Source: an uncultured delta proteobacterium (GTDB taxonomy: Bacteria > Desulfobacterota > Binatia > Binatales > Binataceae). From it: DNA of 64,000 bases. Every line of letters starts with the position of its first letter. The first letter of the stretch is position 1. This document shows positions 38,445 to 47,534 of this stretch, piece after piece. The stretch covers positions 544,001-608,000 of the forward strand of contig CAWJET010000002.1 in NCBI GenBank assembly GCA_963842085.1. The letters are read 5' to 3'. The notes below the pieces were generated by a model. The model was not told the origin of the DNA and searched no databases. It worked only from the letters and a program-made list of their open reading frames with translations. A program made the translations under genes and the position numbers.

Positions 38445-39272
38445 ATGAAATTTGCAGTCGCAATCCGCAACATGGGGCCGCAATCCGATCGCTCGACGAT
38501 TCGCGCCTGTGCACGAATCGCAGAGCAAGCCGGCTTCGACGCGCTCTTCGTCTCCGACCATTTGTGCATTCCGCCCGACCAGACCGAAGGTTCCGGCGGG
38601 CGCTATCTCGACGTGCTCGCCACGCTGGCCTTCATCGCCGGCGCGACCGAGAAAATCCGGCTCGGTGTTTCGGTGCTGGTCGTCCCCTACCGGCCCGCCG
38701 TATTGACAGCGAAGCAGGTCGCGACGATCCAGGAATTGTCCGGCGAGCGAATGATCCTCGGCGTGGGTGTCGGATGGATGAAGCCGGAGTTCGCCGCTCT
38801 CGGCGCCGACATCCGGCAGCGCGGCGCCGTTACCGACGAAACGTTGAGCGTGATTCATCATCTGTTCAGCGCCGATGTACCCGGCGCGTACGACGGCCCG
38901 CTCGTGAAGTTTCCGTCCTTCGTGTTCCTGCCAAGACCCAAGTGCCCGCCGATTTGGATCGGCGGCAACGGTGCGGCGGCGATAAATCGTGCGCTGAAAT
39001 TCGGCGACGGCTGGCATCCGATGCTGCCCGCATCGGAACTTAAAGCAAAAGTTGAAGAATTGCTTGCGCGCTCACGGGCGACGGGTCGCGCGCTGCCTGA
39101 AATTATCGTCCGGCGAGGGCTACGGCTCGACGATATCGCCGGGGCGCGCGCGAAAGTCGCGGCTGAGCGGGAAGCCGGCGCGACCTATTTCATCCTGGAC
39201 CTGGGGCGCTATCCGAACGAGCAATCGTTCGGCGCATCGGTCGAGACTTTCATGGCGAAAGTCGCGAACTAG
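38445..39272 (+). CDS. LLM-class probable F420-dependent oxidoreductase
   Basis: AEQAGFDALFVSDH, LGVGVGWMKPEF, PPIWIGG and GDGWHP motifs; start reassigned. Confidence 0.92.
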   Translation: MKFAVAIRNMGPQSDRSTIRACARIAEQAGFDALFVSDHLCIPPDQTEGSGGRYLDVLATLAFIAGATEKIRLGVSVLVVPYRPAVLTAKQVATIQELSGERMILGVGVGWMKPEFAALGADIRQRGAVTDETLSVIHHLFSADVPGAYDGPLVKFPSFVFLPRPKCPPIWIGGNGAAAINRALKFGDGWHPMLPASELKAKVEELLARSRATGRALPEIIVRRGLRLDDIAGARAKVAAEREAGATYFILDLGRYPNEQSFGASVETFMAKVAN

Positions 39273-40510
39273 ATAATTTTGTCGCGGCGGAGCGACTCGA
39301 AATCGTCTGGGCGGACGCCGAGCATCTCGCGATAGACGCGATCGTTGTCGTATCCGACCGGCACCGACCCGCGAACGATTTTCCCGGGCGTCAGTGAAAA
39401 CTTTGGCACGACGCCGATGCCCTTCACCTTGCCCACCTGCTCGTCTTGCCATTCGACGTGCATCCCGCGCGCGCGGTATTGCGGGTCCTCGGCGATGTCC
39501 TTGCTGGTCATGATTGGCGAGCACGGCACGTTGGCATTCGCCATCGCCGCAACGACTTCCTTCACGGTGCGCTCGGAAATCCATCCGCGCAGGAGCGCGT
39601 CGAACTCGATTCCTTCGATCGATTCGAGTTGGGTGCGCGCCGTCTCCCATTTCGGGTCGGCGGAATCGAGCCCGATCACGCGCAGCAGCCGTCCGTACAC
39701 GTCGCCGATCGCGCCCATCACGACCCATCCGTCGCTGGCCTGGAACGAATCGAGCGGCTGGAATCCCTGCGCGCGATTTCCGGAGCGCTCGCGCACGATG
39801 CCGTTCTGGAAGTATTCGACCATCGTGCCGCCCAATGTCTTGTGAATCGCCTCGTACTGCGCGACATCGATCGACTGACCCTTGCCGGTCGCGCGCGCAT
39901 AAGTCAGGCCGGCAAGCGAGGACCACATCGCGAACAGCGCGGTCAGGTAGTCGCCCGTCCACGGCGCGGCGCGTGTCGGTGGAGTGGGGTCGGGGAAGCC
40001 GGTCTGGTACATCATGCCACCGGCGGCCTGCCCTACCACGTCATACGACGCGCGATGCACGTAATCGGGATCCCCGCTTTGCCCGAAGCCCGACACGTGA
40101 GTGATTACCAACTTCGGATTGACCGTCCAAATCGCCGCGTCGTCGAGGCCCCATTTTGGGTAGGTGCCCGGCCTTGAGCTTTCCATCAAGATGTCGGCGC
40201 GCGCGATGAGTTTCAAAAAGATTTCGCGGCCGCGCGGCTTCGACAAATCGAGCGAGACGCAGAACACGTTGCGCCGTTCCTGGATCCAGGTAGTCGCGAC
40301 GGCGGAGTTGCCGTCCTTGGTCTTGAGCCTGATGCCGATATTGCGCCATCCGACGTCGCCTATTCCCGGCCGCTCGATCTGGATCACTTCCGCGCCCATT
40401 TCAGCCGCCAGCTCGGCAGCGAACGGTTGCGCAATCAACGTCCCGGTTGAGACGATCTTTACACCCTGCAGCGGCCCGAATTTTTCAGTAACCAGGTTCT
40501 CGATGCTCAT
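39269..40510 (-). CDS. Family III CoA-transferase (CaiB/BaiF)
   Basis: GPLQGVKIV, GAEVIQIERPG, VSGFGQSG and catalytic GDY; start MSIENL. Confidence 0.93.
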   Translation of the reverse strand: MSIENLVTEKFGPLQGVKIVSTGTLIAQPFAAELAAEMGAEVIQIERPGIGDVGWRNIGIRLKTKDGNSAVATTWIQERRNVFCVSLDLSKPRGREIFLKLIARADILMESSRPGTYPKWGLDDAAIWTVNPKLVITHVSGFGQSGDPDYVHRASYDVVGQAAGGMMYQTGFPDPTPPTRAAPWTGDYLTALFAMWSSLAGLTYARATGKGQSIDVAQYEAIHKTLGGTMVEYFQNGIVRERSGNRAQGFQPLDSFQASDGWVVMGAIGDVYGRLLRVIGLDSADPKWETARTQLESIEGIEFDALLRGWISERTVKEVVAAMANANVPCSPIMTSKDIAEDPQYRARGMHVEWQDEQVGKVKGIGVVPKFSLTPGKIVRGSVPVGYDNDRVYREMLGVRPDDFESLRRDKII

Positions 40511-40682
40511 GCATTCTCCGGTCGGAGGACGAAAAATCTTGCGCGATGATGCCTGTTTTTGTCCGGAGGGGGCAATATGAGCGCTGCAGCCGGTCGATTG
40601 CATGCCGTTTGCGGAGAGCGTTTTCCATCGACTCGTTGCGGGCTATTATATTTACAAGCGGGATGATTGTGCCGAGGGCGGC

Positions 40683-42014
40683 GTGAATTCACCTCTGACT
40701 CTACTGAAAAGCGACTCTCTAAACCGGCGCGAACTGACGTTCAAGGCTCTTGCGGGCTTGGTCGGCGGCGCGATCGGATGGCTGCCCGTCGAGCTGGCCT
40801 CGCACAACTCTCATCTCGGCGAAGTGCAGACGACGGGCGCGCTGGTCGCGTATTACATCTCGGCGGCGATGGCTGCGGGCGCGATCGGGGCGTTCATAAC
40901 GGCGGTGGATACATCCGACGTTCGCGTGACGCCGGAGACCAAGCGCCGCTTCATTCGCGGTTTCGTGATCTGCGCGCTGCTCTCGCTGCTCTCCACTTAC
41001 TTCGGAAATTATGTGTTCAACGCGGTTCTCCAGGCCGGCGGAGTCGGCTTCAGTCCAAATGGCGAGCTGGTTTCGGGGTCGATTATAACGCTCGTGATCG
41101 CAAGGCTCCTGGGATGGGCCATCGACGGAGCGCTGGTGGGCGCCGGCGTGGGACTGGCGACGCTGACGATGGAGAACGTGCCCAAGGGAGCGGTGGGCGG
41201 ACTGGTGGGCGGTGCGGTCGGCGGTATCGGCTTCGATTTGATCGGCTGGATCGTCGGCGGCGGCCTGGCGTCGCGGTTCTTCGGCGAAGCCGTCACCGGC
41301 CTTGCGATCGGGTTGTTCATCGGGCTGGTCCAGGAGCTGACCAAGGCCGCGTGGGTCACCGTCGAGCAGGGCCGGCTGCGCGGACGCCAGTACCGGATCG
41401 AAGGCGCGCGCGCAACGATTGGGCGCGCCGAGGAAAATCCGGTCGGCCTGTTCGGCGATCCGCTGGTGCAACAGCGGCACGCGGTGATCGAACGGCGCGG
41501 CGCCGACTACGTGATTAGAAATCTCGCGATCCAGGACGGCACCTTCGTCAACGGCCAGCGAATCGAGAGCGTTGACCTGCACGACGGCGATCGAATCAAC
41601 ATCGGCGGCTACGAAATGATGTTCCACCTGCGCGGGACGTCGGCGCCGGCGCGGCAACAGGCGTCGCTGGCGGCAGATGCGGTGAATCCCGCGCATGTCG
41701 CCACGCGGCTGGCCGGCCCAAAGGCGAAGGTCGACGGCCCGAGCCTGGTCGATGTGTCGGGGCAGCCCTACCCGGTCGTGGCCGGCGCGGTTACTCGCGT
41801 CGGGCGCGCCCTCGACAATGAAATCGTGGTCAGCCATTCCTCGGTCTCGCGCCATCACGCGAGCATCGAAAATTCCAACGGCGCCTTCGTGGTGCGCGAC
41901 CTCAACAGCCAGAACGGAACGTTCGTCGGCAACCGGCGCGTGACCGAGCCAACGCGCGTGAGCGACGGCGACAGCGTAAGGTTCGGCGACGCGCAGTTTA
42001 CCTTCCGTGGCTGA
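40683..42014 (+). CDS. Polytopic membrane protein with two C-terminal FHA domains
   Basis: About 6 Gly-rich TM helices; FHA1 IGR..QQRH..DGTFVNG; FHA2 VGR..SRHH..SQNGTFVG; start uncertain. Confidence 0.9.
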   Translation: MNSPLTLLKSDSLNRRELTFKALAGLVGGAIGWLPVELASHNSHLGEVQTTGALVAYYISAAMAAGAIGAFITAVDTSDVRVTPETKRRFIRGFVICALLSLLSTYFGNYVFNAVLQAGGVGFSPNGELVSGSIITLVIARLLGWAIDGALVGAGVGLATLTMENVPKGAVGGLVGGAVGGIGFDLIGWIVGGGLASRFFGEAVTGLAIGLFIGLVQELTKAAWVTVEQGRLRGRQYRIEGARATIGRAEENPVGLFGDPLVQQRHAVIERRGADYVIRNLAIQDGTFVNGQRIESVDLHDGDRINIGGYEMMFHLRGTSAPARQQASLAADAVNPAHVATRLAGPKAKVDGPSLVDVSGQPYPVVAGAVTRVGRALDNEIVVSHSSVSRHHASIENSNGAFVVRDLNSQNGTFVGNRRVTEPTRVSDGDSVRFGDAQFTFRG

Positions 42015-42348
42015 CGCGGAGTTCGAGAAGCCGAGGTTCTGCTCGCGATGCGGGCAGCCGATCATCGTCGCCGAGGCAAGCTTCTGCAAATCGTGCGGCG
42101 CGCCGGTGACTCGTTTCCCGCTGCTGCGTCAAAATCCGGGGTTCAGCCCGGTGCTCGCGCTCGTGTTGAGCATCGTTCCCGGCGTCGGCCACATTTACCG
42201 GGGCAAACCCTTCAAGGGAATTATGTGGTTTTTTTTCGTATCGATAGCGTACGGCATGGGGCCGCCGCTCGGCGTCCTCATTCACATCATATGCGCGGCC
42301 AATGCGGCCTTCTCGGGCGCGCTACGCGAGGACATGCTGGCGAGATAA
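42007..42348 (+). CDS. Zinc-ribbon + TM2-like small membrane protein
   Basis: FCSRCG..FCKSCG; LSIVPGVGHIYRG; overlaps the FHA gene. Confidence 0.85.
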   Translation: MADAEFEKPRFCSRCGQPIIVAEASFCKSCGAPVTRFPLLRQNPGFSPVLALVLSIVPGVGHIYRGKPFKGIMWFFFVSIAYGMGPPLGVLIHIICAANAAFSGALREDMLAR

Positions 42349-42408: not shown

Positions 42409-43920
42409 ATGATTGCGGCCAACACCATCGTTGGCGGCCGTTACCGGGTGACGAAGCCGCTGGGCGGGGGCGGGATGAAACTCGTCTACCTGGCCGAAGA
42501 TCTGCGGCTTGCGGCGCGGCCGTGTGCGCTGGCCGAGATGGTCGACAGTTTCACCAGCCCGGATACACAGAGGCAGGCGGTCGCTGCGTTTCAGCGTGAG
42601 GCCGACATGCTCGCGCAACTCAGCAACGAGCATATTCCGCGCGTATTCGATCGCTTCAGCGACCAAAACCGTCACTACCTGGTGATGGAGTTCATCGACG
42701 GGATCACGCTTGAGCAGAAACTCAAAGACAGCGGCGGCAAGCTTGCTGAAGGCGAAGTGATCGAGGTGGCGCTGCAAGTGCTCGACACGCTCGAGTACCT
42801 GCATAACCTGGAACCGCCGGTGATCTATCGCGACCTGAAGCCGTCGAACGTAATGCTGACGCCGTCGGGGCAAGTCAAGCTGATCGATTTCGGAATCGCG
42901 CGCCTGTTCCAGCCGCTCAGCAACGCGACGATGATCGGCACGCAGGGCTACGCGCCGCCCGAGCAATATCGCGGCAAGGTCGAGTTCCGCTCGGACCTGT
43001 ACGCGCTGGGCGCCACGATGCATCATGCGCTGTCGGGACGCGACCCGGCGCTCGAGCCGCCCTTCAGCTTTCCGGCGTTGCACTCGCTATGCCCTGACGT
43101 CACCCCCGCCCTCTGCGAGTTGGTCGATCAGGCGCTCAAATACGACGTGGTCCTGCGCATGGCCGATGCCGCGGAATTCAGGCAGCGGCTGATGGCAATC
43201 AAGTCGGGCGCTCCGGTCACGATGCCACAGCGCAATTCGTCAACGGCGGCGGGGGCACGTCCGCAACTAAAGCTGCCGCTCAGCGGCGTCAAGTCCAAAG
43301 AGCAGAATGCGTCGGCGCCGACGATGCTGAGCAGCCAGATCGACTCGGAATGTCCGCGATGCGGCCGCAGCATTCCGATGGACTCGAATTACTGCTCGTT
43401 CTGCGCGGCGGACGTGACCGGGCGATTGTCGGCGCTCGATCGCGGCGCGACGCCCGAGGGGCAACCGATCGTGCTCGACGACGTTGCTCCGCCGGGCGGA
43501 TATCCGGGTCCGATTTTTCATCCCCGCCATCGTAGGCGGCATCGCGCGCGGATGCTGGCGCTGGTGGTCGGCGGATTTTTTCTCATTGGGTACCTTATGT
43601 TCCATTCGTCGCAACCGCAGCCTTCCGACGGCTACCCGGGACCCGACTACGGCGGCGTCCCATCGGTGCCGAATGGCGGCGCGCCCGAGCCGGGGGAACC
43701 GGTGCATACCGATCCGCGGGAGGTCGCGCTGCGCCACGCGCTCGACGCGCAGGGCTACACCTCGGTGCATTTCAAGATGGAGGGCGACACGATCATTTTG
43801 TGGGGCACGGTGCCGACCGAGGCCGATCGTCTGATGATCCAGACGCAGGTTTTCCTGGTCGCGCGAATTTTCTCGATCGAGGACCATCTCCAGGTGCGCG
43901 ATACGTTCGCCGAGCCATAG
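42409..43920 (+). CDS. Hanks-type Ser/Thr kinase with WNK-like lysine placement, zinc ribbon, TM and BON-like domain
   Basis: GGGGMKLVY, CALAEM, FQREA, YRDLKPSN, DFG, GTQGYAPPE and SDLYALG; CPRC..CSFC; TM; WGTV..IEDHLQV. Confidence 0.93.
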   Translation: MIAANTIVGGRYRVTKPLGGGGMKLVYLAEDLRLAARPCALAEMVDSFTSPDTQRQAVAAFQREADMLAQLSNEHIPRVFDRFSDQNRHYLVMEFIDGITLEQKLKDSGGKLAEGEVIEVALQVLDTLEYLHNLEPPVIYRDLKPSNVMLTPSGQVKLIDFGIARLFQPLSNATMIGTQGYAPPEQYRGKVEFRSDLYALGATMHHALSGRDPALEPPFSFPALHSLCPDVTPALCELVDQALKYDVVLRMADAAEFRQRLMAIKSGAPVTMPQRNSSTAAGARPQLKLPLSGVKSKEQNASAPTMLSSQIDSECPRCGRSIPMDSNYCSFCAADVTGRLSALDRGATPEGQPIVLDDVAPPGGYPGPIFHPRHRRRHRARMLALVVGGFFLIGYLMFHSSQPQPSDGYPGPDYGGVPSVPNGGAPEPGEPVHTDPREVALRHALDAQGYTSVHFKMEGDTIILWGTVPTEADRLMIQTQVFLVARIFSIEDHLQVRDTFAEP

Positions 43921-43930
43921 CATCCACTTC

Positions 43931-44587
43931 ATGATCGTCGACCTGCACGTCCACACGCGGCTTTCGTCCGACTCCAACGTCGCGCCGGAACAGTATCTCG
44001 AATTCGCGAAAAGCTCGGGCCGCGGACTCGGCGCGATCTGCTTCACCGAGCATCGCCTGTTCCCCGCTGACGCCGAAGTCGACCGGCTCTACGCGGAACT
44101 CGCGGAGCGATTTCAGATTGCGATTTTCAAGGGAATCGAGGCCGACACCGACCTCGGTCACCTGCTGCTTCTCGGCGTCACCAGCGAAGTGACGCGGCGA
44201 TTCGATCTGACGGCGCGGATGCTCAAGAGTGACAGCCTGATCGAGGTGATTCATCATGAAGGCGGCGTCGCGATACCCGCGCATCCGTTTCGCGACTCCG
44301 GCTATGGCTCGCGGCTGGACGCACTGCTCAGCCGTCATGGTGCGGCGATTGGCGCGGTCGAAGTGCTTAACGGCCAGAACTCGAGCGAGGAGAACCGGCG
44401 CGCGGAGGATGCGGCGCTCAAGCTCGGGCTGACGGCGGTCGGCGGCAGCGATGCTCATTTCGCGACTGCGAAATGGTTCATGACGGTCGCGACGGAGTTC
44501 GAACGCGAGGTAAACACGGTCGAGCAGATGTGCGCGGAAATCCGCGCCGGACGCGCGCGTCCCTATGTCTTTACGGGTTCGGACTGA
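43931..44587 (+). CDS. PHP-domain metallophosphoesterase
   Basis: DLHVHT, TEH, GIE, GHLL, AHPFR, EVLNG and GGSDAH motifs. Confidence 0.92.
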   Translation: MIVDLHVHTRLSSDSNVAPEQYLEFAKSSGRGLGAICFTEHRLFPADAEVDRLYAELAERFQIAIFKGIEADTDLGHLLLLGVTSEVTRRFDLTARMLKSDSLIEVIHHEGGVAIPAHPFRDSGYGSRLDALLSRHGAAIGAVEVLNGQNSSEENRRAEDAALKLGLTAVGGSDAHFATAKWFMTVATEFEREVNTVEQMCAEIRAGRARPYVFTGSD

Positions 44588-46623
44588 GCTGCGGCGCGCG
44601 CGGCGCCGGCTGGTTCCCCGTTTTCCAGCTCGTGCGCGAATTGCCGGATGTCTTGCGGACGCCCCGCGGTGATCAACTCGTCGCCTTCTTTCAGCGGGCG
44701 ATCGGGCGTCATGGGCGCGAAGCCGCCATCCGGCTTGTTCGCCTCCTGAACGGCAAGCACGGTGACGCTGAATCGCGCGCGCGGATCGAGTTGACGCACC
44801 GTTCTTCCCGCCGCGTTGGCGGGGACGGTCACCCGCGTCACGCGATAACCGGTCGCCCAGTAGATATTCGGATCGCGCGTCGCGAGGGTCGAGAGCGAGA
44901 CCGATACACGGTTCAGCGCTTGCGCAATCTGCCGGCTGGTGACGAGCCCGAGGAACCCTTGCGTGGCGCGGTCGACGACCGGAATCTCGTCGAGGCCGTC
45001 GTGCTCCATCAACTGGCTGGCCTCATCGAGATTCGCATCGAGCGGCACGGTCGGACCATGCGCATTGCAGATGTCGAATGCGTTGACCAGCGGACCGAGT
45101 TCCTGGCCGGCGCTGATTACGGACAACAAATCCCGCACTACGATTGTCCCGGCGAGTTCGCCCTCGCTGCTGACCACCGGCAGGGTGGATTGCTCAGTCT
45201 CGCCCGCGGTGCGCAGCACCTCGGACAGCGAGGTGTTCTCGCTCACCATGGTGACGTTTTTGGTGACCACCGCGCTGACCGGTATGAGCGCGAGCGCCAG
45301 GCGCTCGCGGCCGATTTGCAGCGTCTTGCCCTCGCGCGCCAGGCGGAACTCGTCGATCGATTCGGTTTCGATCGCGCGTGCCACGACCACCGCCGTGATC
45401 GTCGCGATCATCGACGGCAGCGCAATCGTGTCGCTATGCGTCATTTCCCAGAGCAGGAACAACGCGGTCAGCGGTGCGTGCGTGGTGCCGGCCAGAAACG
45501 CACCGAGCCCGATGAGCGCGTACGATCCGCGCGGGCCAGTCAGGTGTGGAATCAGCATCGAGGACACGCGCTGGAACAATCCGCCCGCCATCGTGCCGAT
45601 GAAAAAAGTCGGGCCAAAGGAACCTCCCGGCGCACCGCATCCGAGCGACACGCTGCTGGCGAAAAGCTTCGCGCAGGTCAGCGCCGCCAGCATTCCGATG
45701 CCGAACTCGCCCGCCATCGCGCGGTTGATCACCGGATAGCCGTCGGAGAGATTTTGCGGCAGCCAGATTGCGATCACGCCGACCGCCGCCAATCCCATCC
45801 CGAGCTTGGCCCAAACCGGGAGATTGAGCCGGCGAAACCACACCTCGGTCGCGTTGAAGAACCGGATGTAACCCGCGGCAAGGGCGCCGAGCGCCGCGCC
45901 CATGAGCGCATACGTCGCCATCTCCCAGTAGCTGCGCAGCAGGAATTCAGGCGCGGCGAAGACCACCGCGTTGCCCAGGATCGCGCGCGAGGTAATCACC
46001 GCCGTAAAGGTGGCGATGATCAGCAACGTGAGGTTGGCGATTTCGGTGTGGCCGAGCAGGACGATTTCCTGCGCGAACATCAGACCGCCGATCGGCGCGT
46101 TGAAAGTCGTCGCGATACCCGCGCCCGCTCCTGCTGCGACCAGCACCTTGGCGCGATCGGGCGACAATTTTCTGAGCTGCGCGATAGTCGAGCCGATGGC
46201 GCCTCCAATTTGCGCGATCGGACCTTCGCGGCCGACCGACGCGCCTGCCCCCAGCGAAAGTGCGGCGCCCGCACCCTTGACGAAGATCCAGCGCCGCTTC
46301 ACTCTCGCGGTGCCGAGGTTGACCATCTCCAGAAAATTCGGAAAGCCATACCCGAGCACGTCTCCGGGAAAGATCCGGTCGAGCAGCAGAATCGCGACGC
46401 CGCCGCTCAGCAGGATCACTGGAATGAGGGCGCGATGGAGGCCGCCGAGCTCGATTCGGAGCGCGTTCCATTCGAGCCCGCGAAACAGCCACGAGAAAAA
46501 ATCGATCAGTTGGCGAAAGCCGAGGTTCCCGAGCGCGGCGAGCACGCCCACGGTCACGGCCAGCAGAATCAGCTGTACGTATTCGAACTGGTCAACGCGC
46601 AGCGCAAAAGAAGGTCGTCGCAT
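44563..46623 (-). CDS. CLC family channel/transporter with CBS pair and TrkA-C (RCK_C) domain
   Basis: GREGP, FNAPIGG and GGSFGP motifs; two CBS repeats; C-terminal GRTVRQLD..VLAV..LKEGDELI. Confidence 0.93.
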   Translation of the reverse strand: MRRPSFALRVDQFEYVQLILLAVTVGVLAALGNLGFRQLIDFFSWLFRGLEWNALRIELGGLHRALIPVILLSGGVAILLLDRIFPGDVLGYGFPNFLEMVNLGTARVKRRWIFVKGAGAALSLGAGASVGREGPIAQIGGAIGSTIAQLRKLSPDRAKVLVAAGAGAGIATTFNAPIGGLMFAQEIVLLGHTEIANLTLLIIATFTAVITSRAILGNAVVFAAPEFLLRSYWEMATYALMGAALGALAAGYIRFFNATEVWFRRLNLPVWAKLGMGLAAVGVIAIWLPQNLSDGYPVINRAMAGEFGIGMLAALTCAKLFASSVSLGCGAPGGSFGPTFFIGTMAGGLFQRVSSMLIPHLTGPRGSYALIGLGAFLAGTTHAPLTALFLLWEMTHSDTIALPSMIATITAVVVARAIETESIDEFRLAREGKTLQIGRERLALALIPVSAVVTKNVTMVSENTSLSEVLRTAGETEQSTLPVVSSEGELAGTIVVRDLLSVISAGQELGPLVNAFDICNAHGPTVPLDANLDEASQLMEHDGLDEIPVVDRATQGFLGLVTSRQIAQALNRVSVSLSTLATRDPNIYWATGYRVTRVTVPANAAGRTVRQLDPRARFSVTVLAVQEANKPDGGFAPMTPDRPLKEGDELITAGRPQDIRQFAHELENGEPAGAARAAAQSEPVKT

Positions 46624-46661
46624 CAGCAAACCCGTCCAGTGAGCGCGCTATCTGCCACCAC

Positions 46662-47534
46662 TTATACGCCAAGGAAGCGGTGCGCGACCGCCAGGAATTG
46701 GTCGAGCCGGTCGTGATGCACCCAATGGCCGGCTTTGTCGATCGTCACTGATTCTGCGTGCTTGAACGCCTGGATGCGCCCGTCTTTGACCCAGTCGCCC
46801 GCCCACGATTCGGTGCCGCGAATCAGCAAGGTCGGACACGTGATGCGGCCCCAGATTTCGCGCGCGTCGCGGTTGTTGAACATGTACGGGGAGGTGGCGT
46901 GAACGTAGTTGTCGAACTTCCAGGAGTAAGTGCCATTCTCGTTGCGGCGAATCCCCCAAATCGTGAGATGGCGCGCCTGCTCGCGGCTCAGGTGCGAATT
47001 GGCCTCGATCATGCGCGCGAGCGCCTCCTCGATCGACGGATACTCGCGCACCTTGCGCCGCGCCAGCGTTTGCATCTGGCCGATCCAGTTGTTCATGCGC
47101 TCGTGGGCGGGCGTGTCCTTGATCATCCCGGGCGGCGGACCCATTCCCTCGATCGAAACAACGCGCTTGACCGCGTCCGGATGCGTGCCGGTGTATTGCA
47201 AAACGATGCCGCCGCCGAGCGAGTGGCCGATGAGTGTCACCGGTTCGTTGCATACCGCGCTCATGAGCTGCGCGAGGTCGAGCACGTAATCGATCATCGA
47301 ATAACCGCTGCCGACGGCCCAGTCGGAGTCGCCGTGGCCACGGAGGTCGGGCGCGATGACGTGATAGTGCTCGCGCAGATCCAGCGCGACCCAATCCCAG
47401 TTGCGGCAATGGTCGCGGCCGCCATGCACCAGCACGAGCAGCGGCTTGTCGGGATTGCCCCAGTCGACGTAGTGCAGTTTCAGGCGTTGCGAATAAAAGT
47501 AGTGCGAAGTCGGCCCGATGATGCTATCGGCCAT
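46662..47534 (-). CDS. Alpha/beta hydrolase
   Basis: LVHGG, DLRGHGDS, GHSLGG and AGHWVHHD motifs. Confidence 0.93.
   Translation of the reverse strand: MADSIIGPTSHYFYSQRLKLHYVDWGNPDKPLLVLVHGGRDHCRNWDWVALDLREHYHVIAPDLRGHGDSDWAVGSGYSMIDYVLDLAQLMSAVCNEPVTLIGHSLGGGIVLQYTGTHPDAVKRVVSIEGMGPPPGMIKDTPAHERMNNWIGQMQTLARRKVREYPSIEEALARMIEANSHLSREQARHLTIWGIRRNENGTYSWKFDNYVHATSPYMFNNRDAREIWGRITCPTLLIRGTESWAGDWVKDGRIQAFKHAESVTIDKAGHWVHHDRLDQFLAVAHRFLGV

Follow-up and report, generated by a model that had tools for sequence, protein, structure and literature searches.

Can a bacterial protein kinase that has lost the lysine of its beta-3 strand still be a working enzyme? The question is raised by a gene in a stretch of 64,000 nucleotides (hereafter the window) from a soil bacterium, an uncultured delta proteobacterium of the Binataceae (assembly GCA_963842085.1, contig CAWJET010000002.1, positions 544,001 to 608,000 of the forward strand), which encodes a membrane serine/threonine kinase of 503 amino acids. 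No other feature is used as often as the beta-3 lysine to recognize an active protein kinase, and its mutation is the standard kinase-dead control. In the protein described here an alanine, Ala42, stands at the site of this lysine, and a lysine, Lys24, is found in the glycine-rich loop. We propose, from comparison of sequences, that the protein is probably an active RD-type membrane serine/threonine kinase in which Lys24 stands in for the beta-3 lysine. The gene and its parts, in positions of the window, are the following.

42409 to 43920, forward strand: membrane serine/threonine kinase gene, 503 amino acids (open reading frame list and translation).
42409 to 43218, forward strand: kinase domain, residues 1-270 (Pfam Pkinase, PF00069; AlphaFold2 model; Foldseek).
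42460 to 42489, forward strand: glycine-rich loop LGGGGMK24LVY (translation, alignment to StkP).
42523 to 42540, forward strand: beta-3 strand CALA42EM (translation, alignment to StkP).
42598 to 42600, forward strand: alphaC glutamate E64, within FQREA, which presumably forms an ion pair with the catalytic lysine (translation).
42826 to 42849, forward strand: catalytic loop YRDLKPSN, Y140 to N147, with R141, D142, K144 and N147 (translation).
42886 to 42963, forward strand: DFG (160-162), activation segment with T174 and T178, and APPE (182-185) (translation).
43351 to 43404, forward strand: four-cysteine zinc ribbon, residues 315-332 (Pfam Zn_Ribbon_1).
43546 to 43608, forward strand: single predicted transmembrane helix, about residues 380-400 (hydropathy scan).
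43738 to 43899, forward strand: BON-like C-terminal domain, residues 444-497, predicted to be extracytoplasmic (weak Pfam BON match).

The glycine-rich loop retains G19 and G21 of the GxGxxG pattern, while its third position is taken by Lys24 (codon AAA, 42478-42480, following the ATG of M23 at 42475-42477), a place filled by G, A, S, T or C in canonical relatives. Ala42 (GCC, 42532-42534) occupies the site of the VAIK lysine, and the beta-3 lysine is therefore absent. The alphaC glutamate, the (H/Y)RDxKxxN loop, the DFG and the APE motifs are all present, and the open reading frame (ORF) scores 119.3 bits against the Pfam Pkinase profile, for a cut-off of 31.7. An earlier reading of the DNA made from its letters alone (hereafter the sequence-only reading) had pointed out both residues with their codons, as well as the intactness of FQREA, YRDLKPSN, DFG and APPE, and the sequence, the translation and the alignment to StkP bear it out.

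The assignment of the two positions was examined by alignment and in a structural model. When the protein was aligned by phmmer with StkP of solved structure (9ruk, E 1.5e-36), A42 was paired with the lysine of the StkP 'vavk' and K24 with the residue that closes the GxGxxX loop ('grggmA'). An AlphaFold2 model of the kinase domain, built from an alignment of 46 clade members (alignment A1), had a mean predicted local distance difference (pLDDT) of 93.6 and a predicted template modelling score (pTM) of 0.91. In this model K24 opens the strand 24-31 (termed beta-2), A42 lies within the strand 37-45 (beta-3) and E64 within the helix 51-69 (alphaC), these residues corresponding to G55, K72 and E91 of PKA. 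Judging from the strand geometry, residues 24, 26 and 42 would lie on the same side of the hairpin. The top Foldseek matches were PknA (E 7e-21, template modelling score 0.83), Stk1 and PknB, within a range of scores from 0.75 to 0.83.

The arrangement is not peculiar to a single sequence. Among the 120 best word-index orthologue matches, which are full length and 59-100% identical and which, where a name is given, are called serine/threonine protein kinase of Candidatus Binatus or Binataceae, the N-lobes are near-invariant, and all those covering the region read GGMK.VY and [CST]ALAE. An exhaustive profile-free search, in which about 966,000 proteins matched at E <= 0.001, returned 12,671 representatives at E <= 1e-30, of which the best 150 were used: their kinase domains were cut out, BLAST segments not spanning query residues 19-200 were dropped, and the resulting 170 domains, query included, were aligned to one hidden Markov model. 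At positions 24 and 42, 52 of these domains have lysine and alanine, one has lysine and serine, 113 have a lysine at 42 and another residue at 24, four have neither lysine and none has both. Residue 24 of the 113 canonical domains is glycine (77), serine (14), alanine (14), threonine (6) or cysteine (2), and never lysine. The coupling of K24 with the loss of K42 is far beyond chance.

We refer to the 53 domains with K24 and an alanine (52/53) or serine (1/53) at position 42 as swap representatives; K24, present in 53/53 of them, is also invariant in alignment A1. Divergence has brought the identity of their kinase domains down to about 47-50%, and they keep K144, N147, D160, G162, E185 and D196 in all 53 cases and E64, R141, D142 and F161 in 52. 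The intactness of the other catalytic elements is thus a property of the whole set (52-53/53), and in A1 the conservation of T174 and T178 of the activation segment is 90% or more. The C-terminal domains borne by the 46 members of this alignment are varied and include zinc ribbon, Sel1, TPR, FGE-sulfatase and SPOR, a variety that is typical of working receptor kinases.

The same picture was obtained at the DNA level. A pattern for GG-M-K-x-V-Y...D...R.CA, in which residue 42 was left unconstrained, found at least 118 stretches in species-representative genomes, and among the 118 listed matches that cover position 24 there are 117 with Ala42 and none with Lys42, one match being cut short. In 122 pattern matches Lys24 is encoded by AAG (88) or AAA (34), and Ala42 by GCC (97), GCG (14), GCT (7) or GCA (4). 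Both codons vary synonymously, and Lys24 and Ala42 are thus under purifying selection. Sequencing error or decay as the cause of the unusual motifs was considered and is ruled out by the conservation and the synonymous codon variation; the sequence-only reading had dismissed both on the ground of two reciprocal changes, and the coupling (53 domains against 113, with both lysines in 0 of 170) and the 117/118 matches with Ala42 uphold it. It had also named retention of the beta-3 lysine, or a variable residue 24, in close homologues as what would speak against it; close and distant homologues alike conserve K24 and are without the beta-3 lysine.

How often did the swap arise? We built a maximum-likelihood tree of 103 domains from which columns 24 and 42 had been removed. 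It comprised the 53 swap rows, 46 canonical representatives (chosen for an identity of 42% or more and less than 30 gaps, with 67 further canonical domains excluded), two canonical paralogues from the genome of the window and, as outgroup, two distant kinases of that genome; no WNK sequence was in the tree. A canonical sister clade of 48 rows, including the two paralogues, was recovered with an approximate likelihood ratio support (SH-aLRT) of 98, and a swap clade of 47 rows with a support of 95, the six other swap rows being unresolved at the base of the clade. The minimum number of swap changes on this tree is two. When the 53 swap rows were constrained into one clade, the likelihood was 44 log units better than that of the quick free search, with a p-value of 0.916 in the approximately unbiased test (p-AU). 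Several independent origins inside the family were considered and find no support in this comparison. A single origin would be the simplest reading, and the tree is compatible with it. It follows from this reading that the perfect coupling represents one event kept by selection and not repeated evidence. The co-variation that the sequence-only reading had asked for is therefore there, in that Lys24 tracks the loss of the beta-3 lysine, but it most simply goes back to one event and not to many independent ones.

Columns 24 and 42 are those that best separate the swap clade from its sister clade, with a Jensen-Shannon divergence of 1.0 each, whereas the next column reaches 0.87; the next most discriminating columns are residues 127 and 120, in helix alphaE. 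Because the sister clade and the nearest relatives are canonical bacterial kinases, the swap is convergent with that of the eukaryotic WNK kinases and not inherited from them. The transfer of a eukaryotic WNK gene, which we also considered, is ruled out on the same ground. Convergence on a PknB-like scaffold had been put forward in the sequence-only reading and agrees with these relationships, as does the structural rank of WNK3 given below. The comparison with bacterial Hanks kinases and WNK in one tree that it had suggested was realized for the former, which gave the canonical sister clade, while WNK was compared by structure and sequence matches.

The distribution of the swap is narrow in the genomes searched. 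Among 401 sampled genomes of the phylum, that of the window and 4/4 others of the family have the swap pattern, as against 0/9 genomes of other families of the class and 0/387 of the rest of the phylum. In a sample of 61 genomes of the class, all seven genomes of the family, that of the window included, have one swap orthologue and two canonical paralogues; 3/6 genomes of one other family hold a canonical relative only, and no relative at E <= 1e-50 was found in the remaining genomes of the sample. Some metagenome-assembled genomes (MAGs) of Binataceae hold two or more swap kinases. A search for related loci beyond the Binataceae gave, among the 80 loci listed, mostly canonical kinases of Chloroflexota, and the swap in 6/80. 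Two further swap-specific DNA patterns matched 10 stretches and one stretch, respectively; the records bear the names Binataceae, Binatia or (delta)proteobacterium, apart from one 5-kb MAG contig named 'Acidobacteriota'. A swap kinase is also present in three records under other names, two of them Acidiferrales and one Acidobacteriota (L200, L148 and L178), and L148 and L178 show the full Binataceae gene order. Mis-binning of the contigs named Acidobacteriota or Acidiferrales seems likelier than transfer.

Six Hanks-type ORFs were found in the genome, and the swap occurs only in that at 42409-43920 of the window. The kinase domains of the two canonical paralogues (C1:2086477 and C1:2082640) are about 53-54% identical to that of the swap kinase and read GGGGMGMVY with CAIKEM and GVGGMGRVY with VAVKEM, that is, with a canonical glycine-rich loop and a beta-3 lysine, in contrast to GGMKLVY and CALAEM. 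These paralogues lie on either side of an ORF of 687 amino acids (the three together at C1:2082598-2088810) that has a kinase-like domain without HRD and DFG, reading LNDICPES and GLD, and a C-terminal part matching PP2C_2 with 60.7 bits; the protein has the look of a pseudokinase fused to a phosphatase. The trio of kinase, 687-residue ORF and kinase recurs in other Binataceae genomes. The genome holds two PP2C phosphatase matches, away from the kinase gene of the window.

Outside its kinase domain, the protein has the order zinc ribbon, one transmembrane helix and BON-like C-terminal domain. The Zn_Ribbon_1 match has an E-value of 3e-4 with the whole protein and 5.3e-5 with the fragment, both under the curated cut-off. 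The transmembrane helix lies in the sole 19-residue window with a mean Kyte-Doolittle hydropathy above 1.6 and is preceded by a stretch rich in arginine and histidine. The Pfam BON match is weak (E 0.062, 14 bits for a cut-off of 27), and an orthologue, P0100, which is 62% identical to the kinase, is annotated with PF04972.

The kinase gene stands in a group of genes whose nearest members are as follows.

40602 to 42014, forward strand: membrane protein with two FHA domains, upstream (Pfam FHA 3.3e-37, two stretches).
42007 to 42348, forward strand: small membrane protein with a zinc ribbon and a TM2-like part (Pfam matches all under cut-off).
43931 to 44587, forward strand: PHP-family metallophosphoesterase, downstream (Pfam PHP_C 5.2e-12, PHP 3.2e-9).
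44563 to 46629, reverse strand: convergent ClC chloride channel with a CBS pair and TrkA_C (Pfam Voltage_CLC 2.4e-79, CBS, TrkA_C).

The first 8 bases of the zinc-ribbon/TM2-like gene are also the last 8 of the FHA gene, the PHP gene begins 11 bases past the kinase stop, and the ClC gene overlaps the end of the PHP gene by 25 bases. Gene order was counted over 84 full-length orthologue loci, the denominators being the loci with enough flank: upstream, the FHA gene is present in 57/57 and the zinc-ribbon gene in 55/57; downstream, PHP is present in 57/70 and ClC in 30/36 (those where the downstream flank is 3 kb or longer). The FHA, zinc-ribbon and kinase genes are a conserved module in Binataceae, and the outer flanks of the locus are filled by metabolic genes. 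In the class sample, where a canonical ancestor at the locus was sought, the FHA partner was found at E <= 1e-30 in 6/6 genomes of the same family and in 0/54 genomes of other families; its distribution is family-restricted, like that of the kinase.

Gene order and the textbook pairing of FHA proteins with kinases make the FHA protein a likely phospho-threonine-binding partner or substrate of the kinase. The first ATG of its ORF (40602) lies directly beside the start of a CoA-transferase gene that runs the other way (39269-40603, reverse strand), and as distant orthologues match the protein only from residue 36-37 on, its true start may lie downstream. The FHA-gene orthologue of one locus, L232 (G174:C8), contains one in-frame TAG, which may reflect a broken gene, a pair of separate genes or a mistake in the assembly. 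The PHP protein, for which the NCBIfam CehA/McbA metallohydrolase model gives 75.2 bits (cut-off 80), could be a phosphatase of the kinase system or an unrelated nuclease or phosphoesterase. The ClC channel is a neighbour whose presence is suggestive given the chloride sensing of WNK, yet a gene order shared inside one family weighs little as evidence. On the strand opposite to the ClC gene, an arginine-rich ORF of 747 amino acids (44473-46716, forward strand) looks like a spurious open frame in GC-rich DNA.

The kinases to which the swap invites comparison are WNK1-4. In the published accounts, as far as these were available to us, WNK kinases are active with a beta-2 lysine and a beta-3 cysteine (PMC1821047, PMC12599244, PMC13686953), and Kannan et al. 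2007 (PMC1821047) describe WNK as the only functional eukaryotic protein kinase (ePK) family lacking K72, its charge being relocated between PKA positions G55 and K72. The likeness to the Binataceae protein covers the place of the lysine (third in the glycine-rich loop, at the start of beta-2), the small residue in beta-3 (cysteine in WNK, alanine here) and the retention of the alphaC glutamate and the other catalytic machinery. The two differ in other respects. Among proteins of solved structure, those that match it best in sequence are StkP, Stk1, PknB and PknA, with WNK in 0 of the 60 listed, and WNK3 appears at structural rank 39 in Foldseek with 25% identity. The DFG at residues 160-162 stands against the DLG of WNK, so that chloride sensing is not implied, as the sequence-only reading had itself cautioned. 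Autoinhibitory or CCT-like domains and coiled coils were absent from the domain scans, which found the zinc ribbon, the transmembrane helix and the BON-like domain instead, and the partners, such as the FHA protein, are bacterial. On its sequence, the protein is WNK-like at the lysine, yet not a WNK, but a Hanks-type kinase failing one defining motif.

With PknB, PknA, StkP, Stk1 and the canonical paralogues it shares the fold, the catalytic loop, DFG, APE and the methionine of the glycine-rich loop, and with canonical Hanks-type kinases also the single-pass membrane receptor architecture and the association with an FHA protein. The pseudokinases of the bacterial serine/threonine kinase atlas (ActPs1-3, GLW, CP1, DYD and DLHK) resemble it in lacking the VAIK lysine. 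They differ, in the portions of the atlas preprint available to us, by having arginine, threonine or others in beta-3, by the loss of the HRD aspartate and/or the DFG aspartate in most of them and by the lack of any described compensating lysine in the glycine-rich loop, whereas the swap kinase keeps HRD, DFG and the alphaC glutamate. A move of charge from PKA position 72 to 55 has been proposed for CAK-chloro, of the choline/aminoglycoside kinase type (M72 with R55; PMC1821047, of which an excerpt is considered here). These are small-molecule kinases outside the Hanks/ePK group, in which arginine is used, the DFG glycine is changed to glutamine and the alphaC glutamate to phenylalanine; the swap kinase, in contrast, has a lysine and retains E64 and DFG.

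In the atlas preprint, again in the portions available, seven pseudokinase families are set by loss of the VAIK lysine and WNK is cited as a eukaryotic analogy only, and the companion review (PMC12599244) treats pseudokinases and WNK in the same manner. The words 'bacteria' and 'prokaryot' do not occur in the available text of a 2026 review on WNK (PMC13686953). We found no bacterial Hanks kinase with the WNK arrangement in the literature searched, a statement that covers the accessible main texts and is not a claim that none is in print.

How would such an enzyme work? The first residue of beta-2, K24, would take the place of a beta-3 lysine in positioning the phosphates and in pairing with the alphaC glutamate. 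Projecting on the side of the beta-2/beta-3 hairpin to which residue 42 also points, the side chain of K24 would reach the usual site of the beta-3 lysine, where the small Ala42 would leave room for it, and there it would contact the alpha and beta phosphates of adenosine triphosphate (ATP) and pair with E64. D142, K144, N147 and D160 would perform phosphotransfer as in RD kinases generally, and T174 of the activation loop would be autophosphorylated. The two FHA domains of the putatively co-transcribed membrane protein would then read phospho-threonines. The input to the kinase probably comes by way of the extracytoplasmic BON-like domain and the membrane partners. The swap would have arisen once, within a canonical bacterial kinase family in the Binataceae lineage, in convergence with eukaryotic WNK.

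Some points weigh against an active kinase with a relocated lysine. The perfect coupling of positions 24 and 42 is essentially one inherited event seen in many sequences, the swap clade was seen in one bacterial family only, the Binataceae, among the genomes searched, and HRD and DFG residues are also conserved in some nucleotide-binding pseudokinases. The protein could itself be such a pseudokinase, having lost phosphotransfer along with the beta-3 lysine and serving as a scaffold or allosteric switch, for example by recruiting the FHA protein or regulating the canonical paralogues, while K24 at most helps to hold ATP. The atlas counts as a pseudokinase any protein that has lost at least one of the VAIK lysine, the HRD aspartate and the DFG aspartate, which formally includes the swap kinase, and the VAIK lysine is absent in all seven of the bacterial families that its preprint, in the portions available, defines by this loss. 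A genuine pseudokinase domain, that with LNDICPES and GLD for HRD and DFG, moreover occurs in the same genome. We nevertheless regard a pseudokinase as unlikely, since all the other catalytic residues are retained in 52-53/53 representatives despite the divergence of their domains, since the described bacterial families, in the same source, mostly lose the HRD and/or DFG aspartate too, and since a gain of K24 with every loss of K42 in the 53 swap domains, as against 4/170 domains with neither lysine, would be needless in a dead kinase.

It could also be that the kinase is active and that K24 is not the replacement of the lysine. ATP would then be held by Mg2+, K144 and the backbone of the glycine-rich loop, and K24 would bind an anionic ligand or regulator or take part in substrate selection. 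The contact of K24 with ATP is only inferred, and the unusual lysine site of WNK is tied to chloride regulation in the available part of the recent review (PMC13686953), which would fit such a use. We find this quite improbable, because Lys24 and Lys42 are never found together (0/170 domains and 0/117 genome matches) and because residue 42 is confined to alanine or serine, which fits a side chain from residue 24 filling the space of the lysine, as reported for WNK1 in the accounts available to us. A different chemistry on the kinase fold, such as AMPylation or glutamylation with another orientation of the nucleotide, has precedents in SelO and SidJ, kinase-fold proteins whose altered active sites can do other reactions (PMC12599244, as far as its available text goes). 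However, the swap kinase is 50-55% identical to canonical kinases of the same genome, it keeps the catalytic loop, DFG, the activation-loop threonines and APE, and nothing specific to SelO or SidJ appeared in the Pfam and NCBIfam scans, and we hold such a chemistry to be extremely improbable. An active kinase in which K24 has taken over from the beta-3 lysine is thus the reading that we favour as likely.

The relocation of the lysine might not be neutral. As in WNK, it may open a space beside DFG and the activation segment for an inhibitory ligand, an anion or ordered water, so that the protein would be a bacterial kinase sensing ions or osmotic stress, with the BON-like (OsmY-type) domain and the ClC channel belonging to the same physiology. 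We give this only a slim chance; if it were true, the likeness to WNK would be a convergence of function as well as of structure.

If the relocation itself is real, it would be a second and independent move of the catalytic lysine to the same site of the glycine-rich loop, on a PknB-like scaffold, and would make this relocation a reproducible outcome of kinase evolution. What the relocation costs and what it gains could also be dissected on a small soluble bacterial domain that has canonical paralogues, about 53% identical to it, in the same genome. The sequence-only reading had warned that motif pipelines would mis-call the protein as a pseudokinase. This holds for motif-based pseudokinase calls such as those of the bacterial kinase atlas, which would flag it, but not for general annotation, which says 'serine/threonine protein kinase'. 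Motif-based counts of bacterial pseudokinases would then include working enzymes, among them the membrane kinase of the Binataceae.

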